Origin: Hyphomonadaceae bacterium
GTDB lineage: Bacteria > Pseudomonadota > Alphaproteobacteria > Caulobacterales > Aquidulcibacteraceae
Direction of reading: 5' to 3'
NCBI GenBank assembly: GCA_022843225.1
Contig: JALHOC010000003.1
Location: forward strand, 48,290 to 112,289
Length of the DNA stretch: 64,000 nucleotides
Shown here: positions 10,334 through 34,068 of the stretch, in pieces
How positions within the stretch are numbered: the stretch's first letter is position 1
Layout of the letters: every line of letters starts with the position of its first letter
The notes under the pieces: model-generated
Seen by the model: the letters and a program-made list of their open reading frames with translations, nothing else
Database searches by the model: none
Told to the model about the DNA's origin: nothing
Program-made: the position numbers and the translations under genes

Positions 10334-10636
10334 TTAAGGCGCTTCCGGCGCGGGGGGCGCGTGCTCGGCCATACATTGCGTCGCAAAGCCCTCGATTTGC
10401 TTCTGCACCGGGCTTTCGGGGCGCTGCGCGGCGGGCAAGCGCTCCAGCCCGTCCAGATCGGCGCGCGGCACATCGGCGGCGATCCGCGCCCATGAGCACG
10501 CGCATACCGCGCGCGGCGCGCCCTGGGCTTCGCACCCGCGCATGAAGTTGAGTTCGTAGGCAGGCGGGTAGCCTGCCTCGGGTTGACTACAAGACGCGCC
10601 GGCGAGCGCAAACAAAGCGACAATAAGACGTTTCAA
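10334..10636 (-). CDS. Small Cys-rich lipoprotein (paralogue of neighbour)
   Basis: TTG start overlapping the upstream stop (TTGA); lipobox-like GASC; same Cys spacing as 10007..10279. Confidence 0.75.
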   Translation of the reverse strand: MKRLIVALFALAGASCSQPEAGYPPAYELNFMRGCEAQGAPRAVCACSWARIAADVPRADLDGLERLPAAQRPESPVQKQIEGFATQCMAEHAPPAPEAP

Positions 10637-12252
10637 TTCGCGCTCTCCTCCAGCAGCCGTCGCGCAATCACCATGGCCTGGATTTCGCCGGCGCCTTCGA
10701 AAATGTTGAGGATGCGCGCATCGGCCAGCACCCGGCTGATCGGATATTCCACCGCGAAGCCATTGCCGCCATGAATTTGCAGCGCATTGTCCGCAGCGGC
10801 CCAGGCGACGCGCGCGGCCAACAATTTCGCCATGCCGGCTTCGAGATCGCAGCGTTTGCCGGAATCCTTCTGCCGCGCCGCGAAGTACGTAATTTGCCGC
10901 GACGCCATGATCTCGGCGGCGATCATCACGAGCTTGTTGGACACGCGCGGGAAATGAAAAATCTCCTGCCCGAACTGTTTGCGCTCGACGGCGTATTTCA
11001 AGCCGAGTTCCAGCGCGCTTTGCGCCACCCCAACCGCGCGCGCGGCGGTTTGGATGCGTGCGCTCTCGAACGTCGCCATTAATTGCTTGAAGCCCTGCCC
11101 TTCTACCCCGCCAAGCAGGTTGGCCGCCGGCACCTTGAAGCCGTCGAAGCCGATCTCGTACTCCTTCATGCCGCGATAGCCGATCACTTCGATCTCGCCG
11201 CCGGACATCCCCGGTGTCGGGAATGGATTGGCGTCATCGCCGCGCTGTTTCGGCGCAAGCAACATCGACAAACCATTGAAGCCGGTTGTGTTCGGATCGG
11301 TGCGCACCAGCATCGTCATCACGTCAGCGCGGGCGGCGTGGGTGATCCAGGTCTTGGCGCCGGTAACGACGTAATGATCGCCCTCTTGCACCGCGCGCGT
11401 GCGCAGCGACCCGAGATCGGAGCCGGTGTTCGGCTCGGTGAACACGGCCGTCGGCAGAATCTCGGCGCTCGCGATCTTCGGCAGCCAATAGGCTTTCTGC
11501 TCCGGCGTGCCGCCGATCAGAATGAGTTCGGCTGCGATTTCGCTACGTGTGCCGAGCGAACCCGTGCCGATCCAGGCGCGCGACAATTCCTCCGACACCA
11601 CGCACATCGCGGTCTTGCCGAGGCCCGCGCCGCCATACTCTTCCGGGATGGTCAGCCCAAACACGCCGAGCGCGCCCATCTCATTGAGCACGTCAAGCGG
11701 GATCAGCTCATCGCGGCAATGCCAGCCATGGGCATGCGGCATGATCTTATCGTCCGCGAACTTGCGGAATTGATCGCGGATCATCTCGGAGTCGGCATCG
11801 AGATTGGTGGTCTCAAAGGTCGCGCGGCCTTGAGCATCGTGCAGCAAAGCGGCGAGACGCGTCTTTTCATCCTGACTGATCGCGACCGTCACGCGCGGCG
11901 CATCGACCCCAAAATCGGCTGGGCGAATGGTCTCGACCTGCGTCATGGGCAAGCCGCCGGCGAGTTGGGCGCTATATTCTGCGACGAGCACTTTGGCCAA
12001 AAGGCTTTCGACCTCGCCCAACTTGCCTTGCGCATGGAGCGCGCGCGCCCAGTCGCGTACTTCGCGCAGGGTTTCGGCATAGGTCGCCACCCAGGCGAGG
12101 CCGTGAACGACATGCTGTTCGCGATCCATGGCGGCGCGGTCCAGGCTGGCGCCTTTCGCCACCCGCCCACGAACGGCCGCGCGCGCCGCGCGCATATAGC
12201 TTTCCGCTGCGTCAGCAACAGCTTCCAATTGACCTACGATCTCAGCACTCAT
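10633..12252 (-). CDS. mcd: Acyl-CoA dehydrogenase, probably (2S)-methylsuccinyl-CoA dehydrogenase
   Basis: ACAD motifs FTEPNTGSDL, GAKTWIT, IFEGAGEIQ; N-terminal extension with HGLAWVATY typical of Mcd; ccr and ecm nearby. Confidence 0.8.
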   Translation of the reverse strand: MSAEIVGQLEAVADAAESYMRAARAAVRGRVAKGASLDRAAMDREQHVVHGLAWVATYAETLREVRDWARALHAQGKLGEVESLLAKVLVAEYSAQLAGGLPMTQVETIRPADFGVDAPRVTVAISQDEKTRLAALLHDAQGRATFETTNLDADSEMIRDQFRKFADDKIMPHAHGWHCRDELIPLDVLNEMGALGVFGLTIPEEYGGAGLGKTAMCVVSEELSRAWIGTGSLGTRSEIAAELILIGGTPEQKAYWLPKIASAEILPTAVFTEPNTGSDLGSLRTRAVQEGDHYVVTGAKTWITHAARADVMTMLVRTDPNTTGFNGLSMLLAPKQRGDDANPFPTPGMSGGEIEVIGYRGMKEYEIGFDGFKVPAANLLGGVEGQGFKQLMATFESARIQTAARAVGVAQSALELGLKYAVERKQFGQEIFHFPRVSNKLVMIAAEIMASRQITYFAARQKDSGKRCDLEAGMAKLLAARVAWAAADNALQIHGGNGFAVEYPISRVLADARILNIFEGAGEIQAMVIARRLLEESAN

Positions 12253-17458: not shown

Positions 17459-18247
17459 TCAGCTCAGCGCGCCCATCGCCGCGCGCGTTGCATCGTCCGC
17501 GGGAAACAGCAGTTCCAAGCGCAAATCGCGCACCGCCGCGTCTTCGTTGGTGCCGAAATGCGTGATCGCTGAAAGGAACCGCAATTCGCCCGTCGGCGTC
17601 CTGAGCGCGAGCGGCACTAAGGGCCGCCGCGGTTGCGCGGGCTTAGGCGGCGGATGGCGCCGCGCGGCTTCCTCCAAAAGCTTAAGCAAATCGGCGAACA
17701 CCGCATCGCCGCCCGCTTCCAAAGCCTCCAGCCGGATACGCCCGATCATCTCATCGAGCACTTCGCCGAAATTGACGATGAGGTCCGGCGCCAGCGGGCT
17801 TTGCGCCAACATCCGCACCATGTTCATTTCGCCGCTCTGCCCATGCAATGGCGCCAGCAACGCACGCGCGGTTTCGTTGGCGTCATGCAGTGTCCAATAA
17901 CGATCGCACAGCATGGCGGGGTTCGGCGCATGGCGCGCCATCATTTCGGACAACACGGCGCGCAAAGGCCCCAGCGCCTCAGCGTCCAGCGGCGTTGACG
18001 GATAAAGCGGCGCGAACCCCGCCGCGATCAGCAACGCATTACGTGACGCGCGCGGGATCACCATCGCGTCCGCCAATGTCAGCACCATGTCGCGGCTCGG
18101 CTTGGCGCGGTTGGTTTCCAGGAACGACAGGTGCCGGGCCGAGGCGCCCGCAGCCAACGCTAGATCGAGCTGGCTTAAGCCACGCTGTTGCCGCCACGCG
18201 CGCAGCGCATCGCCAAAACTGGACGGGGCCTCAACGAGTGAACTCAT
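17459..18247 (-). CDS. XRE-family HTH regulator with MmyB-like ligand-binding domain
   Basis: WRQQRGLSQLDLA..SARHLSFLETNRAKPSR, RNALLIAAGFAP, LRLELLFPAD. Confidence 0.92.
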   Translation of the reverse strand: MSSLVEAPSSFGDALRAWRQQRGLSQLDLALAAGASARHLSFLETNRAKPSRDMVLTLADAMVIPRASRNALLIAAGFAPLYPSTPLDAEALGPLRAVLSEMMARHAPNPAMLCDRYWTLHDANETARALLAPLHGQSGEMNMVRMLAQSPLAPDLIVNFGEVLDEMIGRIRLEALEAGGDAVFADLLKLLEEAARRHPPPKPAQPRRPLVPLALRTPTGELRFLSAITHFGTNEDAAVRDLRLELLFPADDATRAAMGALS

Positions 18248-18357
18248 GCGCCCAGCTAAAGGCGCTCTGACGCCGCTGTCCATGACCTCTGAGGGAATTG
18301 CGGCACTTACCCCGTCTCCGTCACGCTGAGCGCGTCATACCCAAAGGAGAGACCCTG

Positions 18358-18792
18358 ATGACCCCATTCTGGAGAACTTGGCTACGCGTCTGGTGCTGGG
18401 CGACGTTTGCCTTCGGCGTCGTGCTTGCCGTCGCCGTTTTCCCCGCGCTCGATGCGCCGACGCGCTGGTTCTACGATCTCGTGCACTGGCCGCTCGATGG
18501 CGCCAGCTCTTTCGGCGACAATGTGCGCTTCACCTGCGGTGTCTTGGGCGCGGTGATGATCGGCTGGGCGCTAACCATTTTCACCACCGTCGACGCCGCC
18601 GAAAAACTCGGCGCCCCGGTTTGGCGCGCGCTCACTAGCGCGATTGTCGTTTGGTACGTGATCGACAGCGCGATTTCCGTGGCCTCAGGCGCACCAGTGA
18701 ACGCTGTATCCAACACCGTGTTCCTGATCACATTCTTGGCGCCAATCATGGCAAGCGGCGTGCTGGGTGGGGCAACGACTCGGCCAGCGTAG
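18358..18792 (+). CDS. Hypothetical 4-TM membrane protein
   Basis: SD AAGGAG; hydrophobic; WYVIDSAISVASGA..NAVSN; divergent from the XRE regulator. Confidence 0.8.
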   Translation: MTPFWRTWLRVWCWATFAFGVVLAVAVFPALDAPTRWFYDLVHWPLDGASSFGDNVRFTCGVLGAVMIGWALTIFTTVDAAEKLGAPVWRALTSAIVVWYVIDSAISVASGAPVNAVSNTVFLITFLAPIMASGVLGGATTRPA

Positions 18793-18803: not shown

Positions 18804-18929
18804 CCTTCTCCTGTTTAATGAGAAGGTGTCCGACGCCCGCAGATGCGGGTGTCGGACGATGAGGTTTACTGGCGGCGCCGGCGATGGGCGCCGCAATCTG
18901 GGCGCGCGGCACCCTCACCCGGCGCGCTC
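18804..18929. other. Cluster of four adjacent inverted repeats (candidate structured RNA or element scar)
   Basis: Stems 18804-18826, 18828-18857 (13 bp), 18872-18894, 18900-18929. Confidence 0.5.
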
Positions 18930-18979
18930 AAGCGTCTTTAAGGTGTTCCCTTGTACCTCTTCAAAAGCTAGTAAGACAT

Positions 18980-19435
18980 ATGGCTTCGCTTCGGCTCATA
19001 GTCGCTGCCTTGGTGTTGGCACCGTACACCGCCAGCTTCGCGCAAGACATGCCTGCCCCTGAGGCAGTCGTCGCCAGCGATCCTGAACGATCCGGAATGG
19101 TCACGTCTGAGACGGTCACGCCAGAGGCACGACTAAGGGCGCTGCTTAGACGCCACTTGATGCAGTGTTGGCGATCCCCAATCGACTTGCCAGAACCCAG
19201 TCGATTAGCGGTCACGGTCCGATTCTCTTTAAACGAAGATGGAACGTTGAGTCGTGAGCCACGTGTCGTTGCTCCGCGGCGTTCCTGGTTTCAACCGCAT
19301 GTACGCACTGCGGTAGATCGCGCCGTGGATGCTGTCAGGCAATGCTCGCCTTATCCTATGGCAACCGACCCGTTTCTTGCGGACCGATACGAGATGTGGC
19401 GCGAGGTGGAATTGTCCTTCGCACCGCCGCCCTGA
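18980..19435 (+). CDS. Secreted TolA/TonB C-terminal-domain protein
   Basis: Signal peptide; QCWRSP..VTVRFSLNEDGTL..AVDAVRQCSPY..WREVELSF. Confidence 0.75.
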   Translation: MASLRLIVAALVLAPYTASFAQDMPAPEAVVASDPERSGMVTSETVTPEARLRALLRRHLMQCWRSPIDLPEPSRLAVTVRFSLNEDGTLSREPRVVAPRRSWFQPHVRTAVDRAVDAVRQCSPYPMATDPFLADRYEMWREVELSFAPPP

Positions 19436-19623
19436 CCCGTGTAGCCCACCATCACAGCCAGTTTCTTACCTATACGATCAGAATAGCACCTCGCTCGCAG
19501 ACGCATTGAACGCGCGCTATCCCGAGCATATCGCATGCCCAAGTCGTTGATTTCCAGTACGATGCCCCGGGGATAGAATCCCACCAATCCGACCTGCTCC
19601 AAGCGGTCGTAGAGTGCGCGCGC

Positions 19624-20343
19624 ATGCACGTCTTCGACCGCACCGCCGCCGCCCGAACACCGCAGCTTTGGGCCATCGCCCGCAACGCCTTCGCGCGCCT
19701 GAGCGCCGCGTTCGGCGGCGCTGCCGCCATCGCCGCGCTCGATCCGTTGACGCGTGCGCTCCGGCGCGAACTGCTTGCCTGGCTCGCGCCGCTTGAAGCG
19801 TTGGTGCGCAAACTGATCCTGATCGAAGCCGCGAGCTTCAGCGGGGTCGCACCGCTGAATGTGCGAAAACCGCCAGCACGCGCCGCTGTCTCCACGCGGC
19901 GCGCACCAGAATGCGGCGCCCCAGAACATTGGCGCGCGCCGTTTCACATGGCCGTACCGCCTGAGACGCAGCGCACCATCCCCGAGGATCGCGCGCCACG
20001 CATCCGCGTGTTGGGCCCGCCAACATTGGTTCGCGAGATCTGGCGCGAACTGGCGTCCATCGATCCGCCAGCGGCGCCGCGGCGTGCTCCGATCGACCCA
20101 AAAGTCTCGGTTTGGCGCTTGGCGCGTCGGGTCGAAGCTGTACGCCGCGCGCTCGACGACCCGAAGTCCCTTGCACGGCGACTGGCGCGTAGGCTCGCAC
20201 GTCTGTGCGCCCATGTGCGCCGCGCGTGCGTACGCCGTATCGCGTGCGCGCTGACGCCGCGTAGCAATCCTGATTTGATTCAGCCGTTGCGCGATGCGGC
20301 GGTGATCGGCTGCAGCCTCGAAGACCGCTTCAACTCGGGTTGA
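19624..20343 (+). CDS. Arg/Ala-rich hypothetical protein
   Basis: Amphipathic helical blocks LAPLEALVRKLILIEA and RRVEAVRRALDDP; plausible coding frame. Confidence 0.6.
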   Translation: MHVFDRTAAARTPQLWAIARNAFARLSAAFGGAAAIAALDPLTRALRRELLAWLAPLEALVRKLILIEAASFSGVAPLNVRKPPARAAVSTRRAPECGAPEHWRAPFHMAVPPETQRTIPEDRAPRIRVLGPPTLVREIWRELASIDPPAAPRRAPIDPKVSVWRLARRVEAVRRALDDPKSLARRLARRLARLCAHVRRACVRRIACALTPRSNPDLIQPLRDAAVIGCSLEDRFNSG

Positions 20344-20358
20344 ACCCGGCTTTGCGAC

Positions 20359-21630
20359 CTAGCCCCGCGCCGCACTTGCCTCCAGCACGTCGTCCCACGT
20401 GCGGAGCCCGCTGCGCTGCGCGTTCACCAGCACAGCCATGTTTCCCGGCGCGTGCTTGTTATCGAGCATTTTTTCGTGGGCATCGGGGATTTTGTCCCAC
20501 GGGAACACTTCCGACATTGCCGGATCGATACGTCGATCGATCACGAGTTGGTTGGCCTGAGAAGCGTGGTACAAGTGCGCGAAGTGCGAGCCCTGCACGC
20601 GCTTCTGGCGCATCCACAGGAAGCGCGCGTCCATGGTGAGATTGAAGCCGGTGGTGCCGGCGCAGATCACCACCATCCCGCCGCGCTTGCACACCAGAAC
20701 CGACACCGGGAACGTCGCCTCACCCGGATGTTCGAACACGATATCGACATCCTTGCCGCCAGTGATTTCCCAGATGGCTTTGCCGAACTTGCGGCTTTCT
20801 TTCATGTAGTCGGCGAACTCCGGGCCGTTCACTTTCGGCAATTGGCCCCAGCACTTGAAATCGTTGCGATTGAGCACCGCCTTCGCGCCCATCGAGAGCA
20901 CGTAATCTTTTTTATCTTCGCTCGACACAACGCCAATCGCATGCGCGCCGCTCACCGCGCAAAGCTGCGTCGCGAACACGCCCAAGCCGCCGCTCGCGCC
21001 CCAAACCAGCACGTTCTGCCCAGGCCGCAACACGTTCGGCCGCCAGCCGAACAGCATGCGATACGCGGTCGCGAGCGTCAGCGTGTAACAGGCGCTCTCT
21101 TCCCAGGTGAGGTGCTTTGGGCGCGGCATGAGCTGGCGCGCCTGGACGCGGCAGAATTGCGCGAAGGAGCCGTCGGGCGTTTCGTAACCCCAGATGCGCT
21201 GGCTCGGCGAGAACATCGGGTCGCCGCCATTACATTCTTCGTCGTCGCCGTCGTCCTGATTGCAATGGATGACGACCTCGTCGCCCGGCTTCCAGCGCTT
21301 CACCTTGGCGCCCACAGCCCATACAATGCCCGACGCATCCGAGCCGGCAACGTGGAAGGGCTGCTTGTGGCCGTCGAGCGGCGAGATCGGCTCGCCAAGC
21401 GCGGCCCAAACGCCATTATAGTTCACGCCCGCCGCCATCACGAGGACGAGCACTTCGTCCTCGCCGATCGTTGGCACCGGCACCTGTTCGAGCTGCATGG
21501 CCTTGGCCGGGCGGCCATGGCGTTCCTTGCGGATCGCCCACGCCCACATCTTATCCGGCACATGGTATTGTGGTGGGATTTCCCCAACCGCGTAGATGTC
21601 TTTGACCGCTTTCAGGTTCGCCTGAGCCAT
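20359..21630 (-). CDS. ccr: Crotonyl-CoA carboxylase/reductase
   Basis: VMAAGVNYNGVWA, HVAGSDASG, WGYETPDGSFAQF, RFLWMRQKRVQGSHFA. Confidence 0.97.
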   Translation of the reverse strand: MAQANLKAVKDIYAVGEIPPQYHVPDKMWAWAIRKERHGRPAKAMQLEQVPVPTIGEDEVLVLVMAAGVNYNGVWAALGEPISPLDGHKQPFHVAGSDASGIVWAVGAKVKRWKPGDEVVIHCNQDDGDDEECNGGDPMFSPSQRIWGYETPDGSFAQFCRVQARQLMPRPKHLTWEESACYTLTLATAYRMLFGWRPNVLRPGQNVLVWGASGGLGVFATQLCAVSGAHAIGVVSSEDKKDYVLSMGAKAVLNRNDFKCWGQLPKVNGPEFADYMKESRKFGKAIWEITGGKDVDIVFEHPGEATFPVSVLVCKRGGMVVICAGTTGFNLTMDARFLWMRQKRVQGSHFAHLYHASQANQLVIDRRIDPAMSEVFPWDKIPDAHEKMLDNKHAPGNMAVLVNAQRSGLRTWDDVLEASAARG

Positions 21631-21681: not shown

Positions 21682-22821
21682 TCAATGGGGCGACGTTTTG
21701 ACGGCGTCCGCGAACTGGGCCTGGCTCAGAGCGGCCTCGGAGCGCGCCGCATTCGCGGTTTTCCGCGCGCGGATGGCATTGACCATCTCCAGCGCGGTTT
21801 TTTGTGGGGGTGGCAACTCGTCGGGGCAAACGCTGATCGGCGTAACGCGCTCGCCCCAGCGCACGACATGGGCGCAATAAGTGAGCCCCGCACCGAACGC
21901 CGGCATGAGAATAAGCGAACCGGGCTTCACACGCCCCTCGTCGAGTGCAGCCGCTAGCGCCACCGGCACCGTGGCCGAACTCATGTTGGCATAACGCTCG
22001 ACGGTGAGCATCACCTTCTCCATCGGGATGCCCGCGCGCGCAGCGACCGCCTCGATGATGCGCAGATTGGCTTGGTGCGGGACCACAAGGTCGATGTCCT
22101 CAACCGTCACGCCGCATTTGGCCATCGCGGCAGCGCTCGCTTGCGCCATACCGTGTACAGCACGTTTGAACACTTCTTGGCCGTCAAAATCGATTAGCGT
22201 ATTGCCGATGGTTACGTCCTGATTCACGTAGGCCGCGCCCATGCCACGAATACGAAGGGTCTGGCGCGCATCAGCGATGCAGCCGAGCTGATCGGCCAGA
22301 ACACCCTCTTCGCGATCACTCGCTTGCACAACAACGGCGCCGCACCCATCGCCGAACAGAACCGCGACGTTACGATTGTCCCAGTCGATATATTGCGCGA
22401 TGATCTCGACGCCGATGACCACCGCGTTGCGCACAACGCCAGTGCGGATCATCGCATTGGCGGTCGACAAGCCATAGAGAAAACTTGTGCATGCGGTGTT
22501 GACATCCATCGCGCCGGCGCGCTTGGCGCCAAGCGCAAATTGCACGCCGGATGCCGTGTTAGGAACCTGTTCGTCGTTGCTGCAACTGCCGAACACGATC
22601 AACTCGACATCCGCCGGATCGAGGCCGGCGCAGGCCAGAGCGCGGCGCGAGGCCAGGATCGCCAATTCCGTGCCGCTCACGTGCGAGATGCGCCGCTCGC
22701 GCATACCGGTTCGCGTGGCTATCCACTCGTCGCTGGTGTCGAGAAATGTCGAAAGGTCGGCGTTGCTCAGGATTGCTGGCGGCATCGCCGCGCCCCAGCC
22801 CGTGATGGCCGCGTATGGCAT
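21682..22821 (-). CDS. 3-oxoacyl-ACP synthase III (FabH-like) with C-terminal extension
   Basis: MPYAAITGWG, DTSDEWIATRTG, ACTSF (Cys), VLFGDGCGA, PHQAN (His), YANMS (Asn); tail WGERVTP..ELPP..TALE. Confidence 0.93.
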   Translation of the reverse strand: MPYAAITGWGAAMPPAILSNADLSTFLDTSDEWIATRTGMRERRISHVSGTELAILASRRALACAGLDPADVELIVFGSCSNDEQVPNTASGVQFALGAKRAGAMDVNTACTSFLYGLSTANAMIRTGVVRNAVVIGVEIIAQYIDWDNRNVAVLFGDGCGAVVVQASDREEGVLADQLGCIADARQTLRIRGMGAAYVNQDVTIGNTLIDFDGQEVFKRAVHGMAQASAAAMAKCGVTVEDIDLVVPHQANLRIIEAVAARAGIPMEKVMLTVERYANMSSATVPVALAAALDEGRVKPGSLILMPAFGAGLTYCAHVVRWGERVTPISVCPDELPPPQKTALEMVNAIRARKTANAARSEAALSQAQFADAVKTSPH

Positions 22822-22912
22822 TGCTTTCCCCCTTTGGCGCAGCGTCGGCGCGCCGCTTCCAAGCGTATTCGTACGACGCCCGTGGAGTCGCCGCCATAGG
22901 CGCGCGCGATGC

Positions 22913-22924
22913 TGCGGCGCAAAA
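22913..22924. promoter_or_regulatory. TGCRNYGCA box upstream of FabH-like gene
   Basis: TGCGGCGCAAAA within TGCTGCGGCGCA, a 12-mer identical to the ecm site. Confidence 0.55.
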
Positions 22925-22960
22925 GAAGGGGCACCCCGGCTGACCAGAGCGCCCCTATTT
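22921..22960 (-). terminator. Rho-independent terminator of the porin-like gene
   Basis: Minus strand GGGGCGC...GTGCCCC followed by TTCTTTT. Confidence 0.75.
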
Positions 22961-22985: not shown

Positions 22986-23723
22986 TTAGTAGACGCCGCC
23001 CGACACGGTGCCGACGCCGGAGAGGCTCGCGCCCGAACGATTGCGTTCGAACAGGGAACCTGTGCCGAAGCTCCAACGCAACCCGACTTCCCATGTGTCC
23101 ACATCGGCGACAGCAGCATCGAATTCGCTCGTGCGATAGCCGCCGGTGAAGCTGAAGGGACCACCGCCCGGCTGCCACTCCAGGTTCAGCGACGTCGAGT
23201 TGATGCCTAAGCCGTCAACATCGAGATCGCGATAGCCGGCGCCGACAGAGAACGTGTCGGTCACGAACCAGGTGGCGCCGACTCGCGACGTCGATCCGTT
23301 TTCATCGAACGTCCCGCCTTCAGCGCTCGTGAACGCGATGGCGCCATCCAGCGTCAGCCGTGACAGATAGAGTTGGCCTTCGGCGCCGAAATGGTAGGCG
23401 TCGATATTGAACGAAGCCTCTTCGACACCCACGAACCCGCCAACCAGAAAATTGTCATTGCGGTTGAAGACGTGCAGGTTCGCGACCGAATAGGTATGGT
23501 TGAAGCCACTGCTTGTATCGACGCGGCTGAAGCGAGCGTCCACCTGCGCTTCGAGTGATGACGTCATGTCGAAATTGACCGCGCCGCCAAAATTGATCGT
23601 ATTGACGCCCGAGCCCTGGTCGGCGTCGGAGTAGCTCAGATCGAGATGGCCGTCGGCCGCAGACGCCACGCCAGGGACGAGAAAGGTCAGCGCCGTCGCC
23701 GCGCCCAAAAGCAGTTTACGCAT
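22986..23723 (-). CDS. Outer-membrane beta-barrel (porin-like) protein
   Basis: Signal peptide MRKLLLGAATALTF..ASA; alternating Gly/aromatic strands; VGLRWSF near the C-terminus. Confidence 0.8.
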   Translation of the reverse strand: MRKLLLGAATALTFLVPGVASAADGHLDLSYSDADQGSGVNTINFGGAVNFDMTSSLEAQVDARFSRVDTSSGFNHTYSVANLHVFNRNDNFLVGGFVGVEEASFNIDAYHFGAEGQLYLSRLTLDGAIAFTSAEGGTFDENGSTSRVGATWFVTDTFSVGAGYRDLDVDGLGINSTSLNLEWQPGGGPFSFTGGYRTSEFDAAVADVDTWEVGLRWSFGTGSLFERNRSGASLSGVGTVSGGVY

Positions 23724-23818
23724 GTCATTCCCCCAAAAGGTTTGGAGAATCACAGCTACCTGCTTCGCAGGGGTCGTGCGCTACCCGTTTGGGTAGGGCC
23801 TGTCGTTGGGGCAGTTGC

Positions 23819-23830
23819 TGCGGCGCACAA
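23819..23830. promoter_or_regulatory. TGCRNYGCA box upstream of ecm (PhaR-type)
   Basis: TGCGGCGCACAA, 19 nt upstream of the GTG; related palindrome CCTGCTTCGCAGG at 23759-23771. Confidence 0.6.
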
Positions 23831-23849: not shown

Positions 23850-25814
23850 GTGAGCTACCAGCACGCCCCCGACCCGCCCTGGATCTTCCGGACCTATTCT
23901 GGGCATTCGACGCCGGCTGAGTCCAATAAGCTCTACAAGACCAATCTGACCAAGGGCCAGACGGGGCTCTCAGTGGCTTTCGATCTGCCAACCCAAACGG
24001 GCTATGACAGCGACCACATCCTCGCGCGCGGCGAGGTCGGCAAGGTGGGCGTGCCGATCGGCCATTTGGGTGACATGCGCACCCTTTTCGACGGCATTCC
24101 GCTGGAACGCATGAACACGTCAATGACGATCAATGCGCCGGCGGCATGGCTCTTGGCGCTCTACGTTGCGCTGGCTGAGGAACAAGGCGCAGACCTCAAA
24201 AAGCTCACCGGCACGACGCAGAACGACATTCTGAAAGAATATCTTTCGCGCGGCACCTACATCTTTCCGCCTGCACCATCGCTGAAGCTGACTGCCGACA
24301 CTATCGCCTGGAGCTTGGACGCGATCCCGAAGTGGAACCCGATGAATGTCTGCTCCTACCATTTGCAGGAAGCGGGCGCGACGCCGGAACAGGAATTGGC
24401 TTTCGCGCTCGCGGCGGCGATCGCAGTGCTCGATGGAGTGCGCGCACGCGGCGAAGTTCCGCCCGAGCGCTTCGACTTGGTGTTCTCCCGCATTTCCTTT
24501 TTCGTGAATGCGGGGCTGCGTTTCATCACCGAAACCTGCAAGATGCGCGCGTTCACGCAGCTATGGGACGAAATCGGCGAGCAGCGCTATGGCGTGGAAG
24601 GCGACGTGCACCGCCGTTTCCGTTATGGAGTTCAGGTCAATTCCCTCGGCCTGACTGAACAACAAGCGGAGAACAACGTCTATCGCATCTTGCTCGAAAC
24701 GCTTTCCGTAACGCTGTCGAAGCATGCGCGCGCACGCGCGGTGCAGCTGCCAGCCTGGAATGAAGCCTTGGGCTTGCCGCGACCTTGGGATCAACAATGG
24801 TCGCTGCGGATGCAACAGGTGCTCGCCTACGAGACCGATCTGCTTGAGTTCGAGGACATCTTTGAAGGCTCCAAGGTGATCGAAGGCAAGACCGCCGAGC
24901 TGATCGAAGGCGCGCGCGCTGAACTCGCCGCGATCGACGGCATGGGCGGCGCGGCGGCGGCGCTTGAGCATATGAAAGCAGCTTTGGTGGACTCCAACCG
25001 CAAACGCGTTGAGGCCATCGAAGCTGGCGCTCAGAAGATCGTCGGCGTCAATTGCTTCACCGAGGCTGAACCCTCTCCGCTCGAGGCGGGCGAGAAATCC
25101 ATTCAGACCGTTGATCTCGCCGTCGAAGCCGAGCAGATCGCGCGGCTGAGGTCATGGCGCGCGCAACGTAACCGCGACGCCGCCGAACGCGCGATCACGG
25201 ATTTGCGCAGCGCCGCCCAGGAAAACCGCAATGTGATGCCGGCGTCATTGACCTGCGCGAAAGCCGGCGTCACGACCGGCGAATGGGCGCAAACATTGCG
25301 CGAGGTCTATGGCGAGTATCGCGGGCCGACAGGCGTCGCGCTGTTCATCGAAACGGGCGGCGAAGACATCGACGGCGTGAAACGTGATGTCGCCGCGCTC
25401 TCAGAGAAACTCGGCCGACAGCTCAGCTTCCTGGTCGGCAAACCGGGCTTGGACGGCCACTCCAACGGCGCCGAGCAAATCGCCGCGCGCGGGCGCGCCG
25501 TCGGCATGGAGGTGCATTACGAAGGCATTCGCCTAACGCCTGCCGAGATCGTTGCTGCTGCGAAGCACAAGAGCGCGCACGCCGTGGGCCTATCGATCCT
25601 CTCCGGCTCGCATCTCGACTTGGCTCAAGAAGTTGTACGCTTGATGCGCGCGGAGGGGCTGGAGCGTGTGCCGCTGGTGGTTGGCGGCATTATTCCGCCG
25701 GCTGACGCGCTGGCGCTCAAACAAATGGGCGTTGCCGCCGTCTACACACCGAAGGACTTCAAGATCACCGGCATTATGGGCGATATCGTGAAGCTCGTGG
25801 CGGACAGAAACTAG
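23850..25814 (+). CDS. ecm: Ethylmalonyl-CoA mutase (MeaA/Ecm), B12-dependent
   Basis: PWIFRTYSGHS, GLSVAFDLPTQTGYD, RFRYGVQVNSLGLTEQQ, B12 motif DGHSNG. Confidence 0.95.
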   Translation: MSYQHAPDPPWIFRTYSGHSTPAESNKLYKTNLTKGQTGLSVAFDLPTQTGYDSDHILARGEVGKVGVPIGHLGDMRTLFDGIPLERMNTSMTINAPAAWLLALYVALAEEQGADLKKLTGTTQNDILKEYLSRGTYIFPPAPSLKLTADTIAWSLDAIPKWNPMNVCSYHLQEAGATPEQELAFALAAAIAVLDGVRARGEVPPERFDLVFSRISFFVNAGLRFITETCKMRAFTQLWDEIGEQRYGVEGDVHRRFRYGVQVNSLGLTEQQAENNVYRILLETLSVTLSKHARARAVQLPAWNEALGLPRPWDQQWSLRMQQVLAYETDLLEFEDIFEGSKVIEGKTAELIEGARAELAAIDGMGGAAAALEHMKAALVDSNRKRVEAIEAGAQKIVGVNCFTEAEPSPLEAGEKSIQTVDLAVEAEQIARLRSWRAQRNRDAAERAITDLRSAAQENRNVMPASLTCAKAGVTTGEWAQTLREVYGEYRGPTGVALFIETGGEDIDGVKRDVAALSEKLGRQLSFLVGKPGLDGHSNGAEQIAARGRAVGMEVHYEGIRLTPAEIVAAAKHKSAHAVGLSILSGSHLDLAQEVVRLMRAEGLERVPLVVGGIIPPADALALKQMGVAAVYTPKDFKITGIMGDIVKLVADRN

Positions 25815-32067: not shown

Positions 32068-34068
32068 CTACCCCAACTCAATCATCACCTCATCCGCCGC
32101 GACGCTCGCGCCGGCCGCCACATGCACCTTCGCGATCACGCCATCGCGTTCGGCGCGGATGATGTTTTGCATCTTCATCGCTTCGACCACGGCAACGCCC
32201 TCGCCTGCCTTCACCTCCTGGCCCGCTCTCACATCGATTGAAATCACCAAGCCCGGCATCGGCGACACGATCAATTTTGACGTATCCGCCTTCTGCTTTT
32301 CCGGGATTTTCTTGATCAGTTCGGCGCCGCGCGGCGTCGCCACCGTGGCGAGCGCGGTGATGCCGCGATGGCGCAAAGTGTAGCCTTCGGGCGCAGTTTT
32401 GATCTTCACCGCGAACGGCTTGCCGTCAAAGCTGCCTTCAATGATGCGCGCGCCAGGGCGCGTGAGCGTATCGAGGCGGTGCTTTTTGCCATCGATAAGG
32501 ACGTCCGCGCCCGCGTTGTCCAGAGACACCTGGGTCAGGTGATGCACCTTATCGAGGATCACCACCCAATCCTTTTGGGCGTCATCGGCGCCGCCATTGA
32601 GACGTCCGCTGGTTTGCGTCGCGCGCCGCGCCGTGAACGAGCGCGCCACCGCCGCGCAGGCGATCAGGAGCTTCTCTTGCGTCTTCGTAGGCGTGGCGCC
32701 CTGGAAGCCATCGGGGAATTTTTGCTTGATGTAAGCTGTGGTGAAATCGCCTTTGCGAAAATCGGCCTCCTCCATCACCGCGCCCAGAAAGGGAATATTG
32801 TCGGCGATGCCGTCGATCAGGAATTGATCGAGAGCGCGCGCCTGCGCGTCGATGGCCGCGATCCGCGTCGGCCCATAGGTGATGAGCTTGGCGATCATCG
32901 GATCGTAGAACATCGAGATTTCATCGCCCTCGCGTACGCCGGTTTCGTTGCGCAGCGTAATGTCGCCGGTCTTGCCCTCTGCCGGGGCGCGATAGGTGCG
33001 GAGGCGCCCAATCGAAGGCAGGAAGTTGCGGAACGGGTCTTCGGCGTAGATGCGGCTCTCGATCGCCCAGCCTTTGATCTTCAAATCCTTCTGCTTGAAC
33101 GCAAGCTTCTCGCCCGCGGCCACGCGGATCATCTGCTCAACGAGATCAAGCCCGGTGATCATTTCAGACACCGGGTGCTCGACCTGGAGCCGCGTATTCA
33201 TCTCAAGAAAGTAGAAGCTCTTATCGGCGCCCGAGGCGACGAACTCCACCGTGCCGGCGCTATCGTAATTCACAGCGCGCGCGAGCGCGACCGCCTGCTC
33301 GCCCATGGCCGCACGCGTCTTTTCATCCAAGAGCGGCGACGGCGCTTCTTCGATCACTTTCTGGTTACGGCGCTGGATTGAGCATTCCCGTTCGAACAGG
33401 TGAACCACGTTGCCATGCTTGTCGCCCATCACCTGGATTTCGATGTGGCGTGGCGCGGTGACGAACTTCTCGATGAAGATGCGGTCATCGCCGAAGGCGC
33501 CCTTGGCTTCGGCGCGCACCGCCGGGAAGCCCTCCTCCACATCCTTCTTGTTGTACGCGACGCGTATCCCCTTGCCGCCGCCGCCGGCCGAGGCCTTAAT
33601 CATGACCGGGTAACCGATCTCCTCCGCGATCTGCACGGCGTGATCGACGCCCTCAATTTCGCCGATGAAGCCCGGCACGCACGAGACGCCGGACTCCGCC
33701 GCCGTCTTCTTGCTCTCGATCTTGTCGCCCATGGCGCGGATGGCGTGCGGGTTGGGGCCGATGAAGGTGATCTTCTCAGCCGAAAGCCGATCGGCGAACT
33801 CGGCCTTCTCGGAGAGGAAGCCAAAGCCAGGGTGGATGGCCTGGGCGCCCGTCTGCTTTGCCGCATCAACGATCTTATCGATAACGAGGTAGCTCTGCGC
33901 CGCCGGCGACGGGCCGATGAACACGCCCTCGTCGGCCAGCTCGACAGCAAGGCTGTCGCGGTCGGCTTCAGAGTAAACGATGGCGGTTAGGATGCCCATC
34001 TTGCGGGCGGTGCGGATGATGCGGACGGCGACCTCGCCGCGATTGGCAATCAGGATTTTGTCGAACAT
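32068..34068 (-). CDS. pccA: Propionyl-CoA (acyl-CoA) carboxylase alpha subunit, biotin carboxylase plus BCCP
   Basis: ILIANRGEVA, HPGFGFLSE, ERECSIQRRNQK, LEMNTRLQVEH, EAMKM. Confidence 0.9.
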   Translation of the reverse strand: MFDKILIANRGEVAVRIIRTARKMGILTAIVYSEADRDSLAVELADEGVFIGPSPAAQSYLVIDKIVDAAKQTGAQAIHPGFGFLSEKAEFADRLSAEKITFIGPNPHAIRAMGDKIESKKTAAESGVSCVPGFIGEIEGVDHAVQIAEEIGYPVMIKASAGGGGKGIRVAYNKKDVEEGFPAVRAEAKGAFGDDRIFIEKFVTAPRHIEIQVMGDKHGNVVHLFERECSIQRRNQKVIEEAPSPLLDEKTRAAMGEQAVALARAVNYDSAGTVEFVASGADKSFYFLEMNTRLQVEHPVSEMITGLDLVEQMIRVAAGEKLAFKQKDLKIKGWAIESRIYAEDPFRNFLPSIGRLRTYRAPAEGKTGDITLRNETGVREGDEISMFYDPMIAKLITYGPTRIAAIDAQARALDQFLIDGIADNIPFLGAVMEEADFRKGDFTTAYIKQKFPDGFQGATPTKTQEKLLIACAAVARSFTARRATQTSGRLNGGADDAQKDWVVILDKVHHLTQVSLDNAGADVLIDGKKHRLDTLTRPGARIIEGSFDGKPFAVKIKTAPEGYTLRHRGITALATVATPRGAELIKKIPEKQKADTSKLIVSPMPGLVISIDVRAGQEVKAGEGVAVVEAMKMQNIIRAERDGVIAKVHVAAGASVAADEVMIELG

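Follow-up and report, generated by a model that had tools for sequence, protein, structure and literature searches.

Whether a gene for a fatty-acid priming enzyme that lies next to ccr belongs to the ethylmalonyl-CoA (EMC) pathway, or only stands beside it, is the question raised by a locus of a Hyphomonadaceae bacterium (Alphaproteobacteria, Caulobacterales), found in a stretch of 64,000 nucleotides of contig JALHOC010000003.1 (assembly GCA_022843225.1), which as a whole is called the window in the following. [quoted passage not shown] The analysis reported here leads to a different answer: the product is a KAS III of the FabH2 type, present as a second copy besides the housekeeping enzyme, and, on present evidence, it is neither a core enzyme of the EMC pathway nor a new entry or branch step. 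It is probably an accessory enzyme of the Vibrio cholerae FabH2 type, captured at the ccr/ecm region with its PhaR-type box and priming fatty-acid synthesis from acyl-CoA of four or more carbon atoms (C4+). The three genes on which the argument turns are the following.

21682 to 22821, minus strand: KAS III gene, FabH2-type β-ketoacyl-ACP synthase III of 379 residues (core, residues 1-322; C-terminal extension, residues 323-379)
20359 to 21630, minus strand: ccr, crotonyl-CoA carboxylase/reductase (TIGR01751, 647 bits; cut-off 379)
23850 to 25814, plus strand: ecm, ecm/meaA-type B12-dependent acyl-CoA mutase (Pfam MM_CoA_mutase and B12-binding)

The mutase is read as an ethylmalonyl-CoA mutase because it is paired with ccr; its score falls under the equivalog cut-off for methylmalonyl-CoA mutase, and the gene is transcribed divergently from ccr in the whole genus.

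The KAS III Gene and Its Copies in the Genome

The reading frame of the KAS III gene runs on the minus strand from an ATG at 22821 to a stop at 21682 (379 aa), with the ribosome-binding site GGGGGAAAG 6 nt 5' of the start; a GTG-initiated frame of 498 aa is an artefact, over-extended into the upstream gene for an outer-membrane-protein-like (OMP-like) product. As the initial annotation had stated, ccr follows on the same strand at a distance of 51 bp, its ATG being at 21630. The protein carries the Pfam domains ACP_syn_III (PF08545) and ACP_syn_III_C (PF08541) and passes two curated cut-offs (TIGR00747, 328.2 bits against 292.1; NF006829, 358.7 against 249). Both active-site features pointed out at the outset are present: the catalytic triad is intact, with Cys111, His249, and Asn279 (C112, H244, and N274 in Escherichia coli) invariant across 110 aligned sequences, and the sequence around the catalytic Asn, YANMSSATVP, has ANMS in place of GNTS. 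The C-terminal tail, estimated at about 55 residues, measures 57 (residues 323 to 379; WGERVTP..ELPP..TALE). In an AlphaFold2 model for which a family alignment of 24 sequences was used, and whose mean predicted local distance difference test (pLDDT) score is 93.4, this tail is confidently placed to about residue 360 (pLDDT about 92-97); a predicted helix continues to about residue 367, and confidence falls beyond.

The genome searched (2.86 Mb, 99.5% complete) contains three KAS III genes, namely the window gene, a housekeeping fabH on contig C9, and a gene of the PRK07515 type on contig C10, which is unrelated to the fab locus:

G000 C10:27161-28315 (L003:1186-2340): third KAS III, PRK07515 type, 384 aa, 617 bits

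The separate housekeeping plsX-fabH, whose existence the initial annotation had wanted to see confirmed, is thus there: the fabH of contig C9 (323 aa, GNTS, 380 bits) is flanked by plsX and ihfA. The window protein and this housekeeping FabH are 41% identical; with the latter, as with the FabH of E. coli, the window protein shares the fold, the triad, the arginines for ACP docking, and a TIGR00747 score over the cut-off, and it differs in the tail, in a Val for Phe87, in its position in a separate long-stemmed clade, and in its lack of fab neighbours. Indeed, in a tblastn search with E. coli queries no gene for PlsX, FabD, FabG, or AcpP was found in the window, in agreement with the earlier remark that acp, plsX, and fabD are not nearby; the matches of the same search lie on contig C9 for plsX, together with fabH, on C34 for fabD, and on C50 for fabG-acpP.

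Relationship to Vibrio cholerae FabH2

The closest solved relative of the window protein is V. cholerae FabH2 (vcFabH2; 3-oxoacyl-ACP synthase 3 protein 2; PDB 4WZU, 4X0O, 4X9K, 4X9O, 5KP2, and 5V0P), with 371 bits, the best ordinary FabH reaching 246 bits. In the HMMER alignment residues 3-348 match residues 5-350 of 4WZU without gaps (47% identity over 346 ungapped residues), including the WGER(V/I)TP motif and the start of the tail helix, and vcFabH2 (4WZU) is also the top Foldseek match of the model (TMt 0.97, root-mean-square deviation 1.3 Å, 356 columns, 47% identity), tail included. The resemblance extends to the triad, to a small aliphatic residue in place of Phe87, and to the presence of a housekeeping FabH in the same genome. 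The two proteins differ around the catalytic Asn (GNTS in Vibrio, GNMS in the soil subfamily, ANMS in the window protein), at position 210 (Phe in Vibrio, Ile in the window protein, Trp in most soil members), in length, the window protein being some 30 residues longer at the C-terminus, and in genomic context, which comprises thioredoxin 2 and major facilitator superfamily (MFS) genes in Vibrio and ccr/ecm with a PhaR-type box in the window. The tail had earlier been likened to that of second-copy FabH proteins of Vibrio and Shewanella; the alignment with vcFabH2 bears out the former, and the FabH2 of Shewanella is listed at 354 aa (PMC4793157).

In a maximum-likelihood tree of 110 sequences the tailed proteins form a single clade (support 99, stem 0.99) to which housekeeping FabH does not belong; of the phylogeny originally proposed, with FabH, NphT7, and FabH2, this gives the split between the FabH2 type and housekeeping FabH. 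Members of the tailed family occur in Caulobacterales, Gemmatimonadota, Acidobacteriota, Vicinamibacterales, Steroidobacteraceae, Spongiibacteraceae, Idiomarinaceae (Idiomarina), Vibrio, and others. The ANMS motif itself has two parts of different distribution, since the change of Thr to Met (GNMS) is usual in the soil subfamily, while that of Gly to Ala is found in three of the four members of the ccr-linked clade described below.

Concerning the substrates, residues R36, R151, and R249 (E. coli numbering) are invariant, and position 214 is Lys or Arg in all FabH2-type groups; R36, R151, K214, and R249 reportedly dock ACP in E. coli FabH, and because they are kept, malonyl-ACP would be favoured as the extender. 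Position 87 (E. coli numbering), on the other hand, separates the two types: all 18 housekeeping FabH have Phe there, and every protein of the FabH2 type has Val, Ile, Cys, or Ala; the residue is Val in the window protein and throughout the genus, and Ile in 24 of the 30 marine sequences, Vibrio included. In ordinary FabH, Phe87 reportedly reaches over from the other subunit and closes the primer pocket, so that its loss, as read from the alignment, is consistent with primers larger than acetyl. vcFabH2 reportedly prefers medium-chain acyl-CoA, octanoyl-CoA in particular. Octanoyl-CoA and acetyl-CoA both appear in the PDB titles of vcFabH2 crystals.

The name FabH2 is also borne by proteins of Pseudomonas, to which the likeness is functional only, no membership being claimed: PA3286 of P. 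aeruginosa and FabH2 of P. putida, considered as the family of the window protein, were rejected as a different KAS III family. The P. putida/P. aeruginosa FabH2 is an accessory, non-essential octanoyl-CoA:malonyl-ACP KAS III, which joins short or medium acyl-CoA primers to malonyl-ACP, as is proposed here for the window protein, and shunts intermediates of β-oxidation to fatty-acid synthesis; the identity of the P. putida protein to E. coli FabH is given as about 25% (PMC10869286).

Distribution of the Linkage to ccr

How far the neighbourhood of KAS III and ccr extends was followed in two samples, one of 80 loci with one genome per species, and one of 80 other genomes of the same family in addition to the present one (81 in all); G, L, and C numbers designate genomes, loci, and contigs. 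Among the 80 loci, the order found in the window (ecm, then KAS III reading towards ccr) recurs, besides this genome, only in Hyphomonadaceae UBA2389 (L037), whose KAS III is 84% identical to the window protein. In the family, a FabH2-type gene is present in 12 of the 14 genomes that belong to the genus besides the present one, and in one of the 66 outside it; among these 13 genomes, G013 and G059 have the same arrangement as the window, ten have the gene elsewhere, and in G069 it lies between ccr and ecm, oriented towards ecm. The linkage is therefore seen in five of about 100 orthologue loci (this genome, G013, G059, UBA2389, and, inverted, G069), all of one genus, and the conserved synteny with ccr that had been put forward as a check is not borne out. 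Within the genus the KAS III gene occupies at least six contexts, the commonest being between a DUF4332/phospholipase-C-like gene and a GCN5-related N-acetyltransferase (GNAT) gene.

The four linked copies of the same orientation form a clade (support 100), while the copy of G069 groups with the unlinked copy of G054 (support 92); KAS III is thus found between ccr and ecm in two orientations and on two separate branches of the gene tree. The gene has entered the ccr | ecm gap either twice, or once with subsequent inversion and repeated loss; in both cases the association with this gap is not purely random, yet it is confined to one genus. The gap itself is variable, measuring 160 bp in G054 and about 860 bp in G040 (L122, C4 4575-5433), while in G028 (L123, C1 7744-10220) it holds 2.5 kb of unrelated DNA, and it looks like a recurrent site of insertion.

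The wider distribution of the two genes points in the same direction. In the family, ccr is present in 72 of the 81 genomes, including the two members of the genus without FabH2, and a FabH2-type gene in 14 of the 81; conversely, no ccr over the cut-off was found in five FabH2-bearing genomes, namely those of Vibrio, Idiomarina, Zhongshania, Gemmatimonas, and a Steroidobacteraceae metagenome-assembled genome. Because ccr and FabH2 fail to co-occur across genomes, the KAS III is not regarded as a component of the EMC pathway.

Clustering of the open reading frames of the 80 loci gave no neighbour of the family conserved beyond narrow clades, the large clusters being frames that overlap the gene itself. 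In Zhongshania, Spongiibacter, and Neomelitea (L049, L051, L056, L059, and L066) the FabH2-type gene stands by a TetR regulator and two acyl-CoA dehydrogenases, together with an amine-oxidase-like flavoprotein and a cyclopropane-fatty-acid-synthase-like methyltransferase; apart from these Spongiibacteraceae loci, no lipid-related context of the family was found.

The Operator-Like Box

The KAS III gene was said to carry an operator box shared with its neighbours, and this is indeed the case: a copy lies upstream of its start codon, and the box recurs at ccr and ecm. The sites of this genome are the following.

22910 to 22924, minus strand: box TTTTGCGCCGCAGCA, 86-100 nt 5' of the KAS III start codon
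21644 to 21658, minus strand: box TTGTGCACTGCAACA, between KAS III and ccr (51-bp spacer), 14 nt 5' of the ccr ATG
23816 to 23830, minus strand: box TTGTGCGCCGCAGCA, in the divergent OMP-like/ecm intergenic region
25556 to 25570, minus strand: fourth box copy, within the coding region of ecm (3' part)
G000 C31:11162-11176 and G000 C2:60078-60092: box sites outside the window (phasin gene, 3-hydroxyacyl-CoA dehydrogenase gene)

The pattern TTKTGC-N3-GCARCA is matched exactly at four places of the 2.86-Mb genome, which all lie between 21644 and 25570 of the window, a count that is partly circular, the degenerate pattern having been derived from these same four sites; the reversed pattern, used as a control, has two matches. 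The boxes at 22910 and 23816, one on each side of the inserted OMP-like gene, are identical at 14 of 15 positions. Similar boxes are found 15-50 nt 5' of ccr and ecm in G054, G040, G028, G013, G059, G069, and L037, and since they are present there with or without a KAS III gene, the box belongs to ccr and ecm.

When a position weight matrix (PWM) made from 15 box sites was scanned over the whole genome, the highest ranks went to the four window sites, among which were interspersed sites at a phasin gene and at a 3-hydroxyacyl-CoA dehydrogenase gene; the former (phasin, PF09361) is preceded by the perfect palindrome TGTTGCAGTGCAACA, and in the latter case the site lies 39 bp 5' of the gene. The TGC-N3-GCA core agrees with the PhaR operators of Rhodobacter and Paracoccus, and a phaR is present in the genome, divergent from phaA-phaB; the box is assigned to the PhaR type because the next-best sites precede the genes for phasin and 3-hydroxyacyl-CoA dehydrogenase, and it is PhaR that we infer to bind it. 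A control of the genes of EMC entry by PhaR would be of interest in itself.

Apparently, the box has come to the KAS III gene together with its position. Sites scoring at least 19.6 with this matrix occur 5' of KAS III only in ccr/ecm-linked loci, the inverted locus of G069 having a weaker one (11.5) in the gap between ccr and KAS III; the control of KAS III by the box is accordingly regarded as a consequence of relocation, and not as a trait of the family.

Changes Specific to the Linked Clade

The four sequences of the linked clade (that of the window, G013, G059, and UBA2389) were compared with 52 other soil-clade sequences at positions that are at least 90% conserved. Four such positions have changed: Trp210 is replaced by Ile, Ile, Val, or Ala, Gly278 by Ala in three of the four sequences, Ala282 by Ser, and Ala161 by Gly. 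The first is aligned with Leu205 of E. coli FabH, reportedly a residue of the primer pocket, and the second adjoins the catalytic Asn, giving rise to ANMS. The copy of G069 retains the ancestral residues. The stem branch of the linked clade is long (0.17), and the changes, seen in four sequences only, hint at a shift of specificity after capture.

Interpretation of the Placement

The explanation considered the most probable, namely that of an accessory FabH2-type enzyme captured at the ccr/ecm region, can be put in terms of the following steps. The KAS III would condense an acyl-CoA primer longer than acetyl-CoA, of a chain length that we would place at about C4-C8, with malonyl-ACP, and type II fatty-acid synthesis would thereby receive CoA-bound short or medium acyl chains. 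The gene would have moved, within a small subclade of a single Caulobacterales genus, to the control region between the divergent ccr and ecm; behind the PhaR-type box it would probably be expressed with ccr, ecm, phasin, and 3-hydroxyacyl-CoA dehydrogenase during C4-CoA and polyhydroxybutyrate (PHB) metabolism. Its local role could plausibly be to use as primers butyryl-CoA or other C4+ CoA esters that would gather around Ccr. Esters of CoA with C4 acids abound while PHB and EMC metabolism is running, and butyryl-CoA is reportedly a side product of Ccr; to prime fatty-acid synthesis from it or from longer CoA esters would then be of use. With respect to the original description of a gene wired into the EMC cluster, what holds is the position in the ccr/ecm control region and the possession of the box, while co-occurrence, synteny, and the box in unlinked orthologues do not agree with it.

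Several observations weigh against the proposal of a captured, co-regulated primer enzyme. In the unlinked orthologues no box was found 5' of the KAS III gene with the same matrix, these regions scoring as control regions do, and for this reason the link in regulation could simply follow from where the gene lies; the co-transcription of KAS III and ccr is at most possible, given that ccr has its own box 14 nt 5' of its start; finally, the neighbours of the family elsewhere (GNAT, MFS, thioredoxin 2, TetR with acyl-CoA dehydrogenases) are mutually unrelated and provide no independent clue to the substrate.

The alternative that ranks next in probability is that of a neutral passenger, in which the protein has a generic FabH2-type role, its placement is incidental in a gap that tolerates insertions, and the box serves ccr and ecm with no selected effect on KAS III. 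Such an interpretation is possible but rather unlikely. It accounts well for the variability of the ccr | ecm gap (G054, G040, and G028, and the OMP-like gene here), for the six or more contexts of FabH2 in the genus, for the unlinked orthologues without a box, and for the family genomes, at least 58, that have ccr but no FabH2; it accounts less well for the occupation of the same intergenic region in two orientations by two separate branches of the gene tree, for the separate copy of the box kept before KAS III after the insertion of the OMP-like gene, and for the four clade-specific changes at conserved positions, of which two adjoin the active site.

A more far-reaching proposal starts from these same changes: the captured KAS III would have been remodelled (Trp210, Gly278, and two more) for a CoA ester of the EMC/PHB cycle, in the salvage of butyryl-CoA or with an ethylmalonyl thioester, and would be co-induced through PhaR with ccr, ecm, and phasin. 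We consider this improbable; if true, a central carbon pathway would have recruited a primer enzyme of fatty-acid synthesis, recently and in a way that can be traced. Very doubtful is the related view, close to the branch enzyme first suggested, that the linked subclade has been neofunctionalised towards an EMC intermediate, with butyryl-CoA as primer or an ethylmalonyl thioester as extender, and makes an unusual ethyl-branched or otherwise specialised lipid. The change of Trp210 at the position of E. coli Leu205 in a clade of support 100, the replacements Gly278 to Ala, Ala282 to Ser, and Ala161 to Gly at positions conserved to at least 90%, and the long stem of the clade would fit it; they come, however, from four sequences only, genes for an ACP, a reductase, or a transferase, which could be partners in making a specialised lipid, are not found nearby, and the copy of G069, which also lies between ccr and ecm, keeps both the Trp and the Gly.

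That the enzyme primes the EMC pathway in place of PhaA, as an acetoacetyl-CoA synthase like NphT7 of Streptomyces sp. CL190 condensing acetyl-CoA and malonyl-CoA irreversibly, is suggested by the KAS III fold and the position next to ccr, yet it is extremely improbable, because a standard phaA-phaB locus beside phaR (phaA, 457 bits; phaB, 365 bits, over the cut-off), with six further thiolases over the cut-off (seven in all), makes such a bypass unnecessary, the ACP-docking residues R36, R151, K214, and R249 are conserved, the closest relatives are FabH2 enzymes from organisms without ccr, and most relatives have the EMC pathway without a KAS III gene. The comparison with NphT7, by description only, is that of two proteins with a KAS III fold and a Cys-His-Asn triad, one of which uses malonyl-CoA and replaces a thiolase, while the other retains ACP docking in a genome provided with phaA-phaB; among the 24 NCBIfam matches of the window protein, none is named acetoacetyl-CoA synthase.

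The locus leaves the picture of the EMC pathway itself unchanged, and its interest is to be found elsewhere. The tailed FabH2-type family is widespread, and this locus is among the few that offer an informative context for it, as well as a hypothesis, i.e., that C4+ acyl-CoA of PHB and EMC metabolism would prime fatty-acid synthesis; moreover, the linked and unlinked orthologues of a single genus constitute natural pairs for comparison.

Other Features of the Window

The remaining features around ccr and ecm concern the insertion upstream of KAS III and two more distant genes of acyl-CoA metabolism.

22927 to 22956, minus strand: GC-rich hairpin and T-run, terminator of the upstream OMP-like gene
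22986 to 23723, minus strand: OMP-like gene, 245 aa, with a signal peptide and a C-terminal aromatic residue
10633 to 12252, minus strand: acyl-CoA dehydrogenase with an N-terminal extension of about 150 aa, fits methylsuccinyl-CoA dehydrogenase
32068 to 34068, minus strand: fusion of biotin carboxylase and biotin carboxyl carrier protein, fits the α subunit of propionyl-CoA carboxylase (PccA-like)

The hairpin parts the OMP-like gene from the promoter region of KAS III. The OMP-like protein (22986-23723) has no Pfam or NCBIfam match, and its gene stands between KAS III and ecm only in this genome, not being found at this position in G013, G059, and L037.

Two further ideas on the pairing of ccr with KAS III were examined and abandoned. 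A role in the supply of polyketide extender units, known for ccr and KAS III in some polyketide synthase (PKS) clusters, was rejected, no PKS or ACP being among the annotated neighbours, which include genes for an M20 peptidase, an MmyB-like regulator, the mutase, RimO, acyl-CoA dehydrogenase, and carboxylase. The katA-ccr pair of Methylobacterium extorquens, considered as a ketoacyl-synthase precedent, was dropped, and no precedent is claimed; katA of this organism is said to encode a catalase.

On the far side of ccr, the stretches 17459-18792 and 18884-20350 comprise the MmyB-like regulator and a divergent 164-aa ORF, common only to G013, and the approximately 1.5 kb that separate these two from ccr, occupied by long ORFs without a family match and missing in G013. 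Since the acyl-CoA dehydrogenase (10633-12252) and the carboxylase fusion (32068-34068) are also present, the window is best described as a loose EMC neighbourhood and not as a tight operon.

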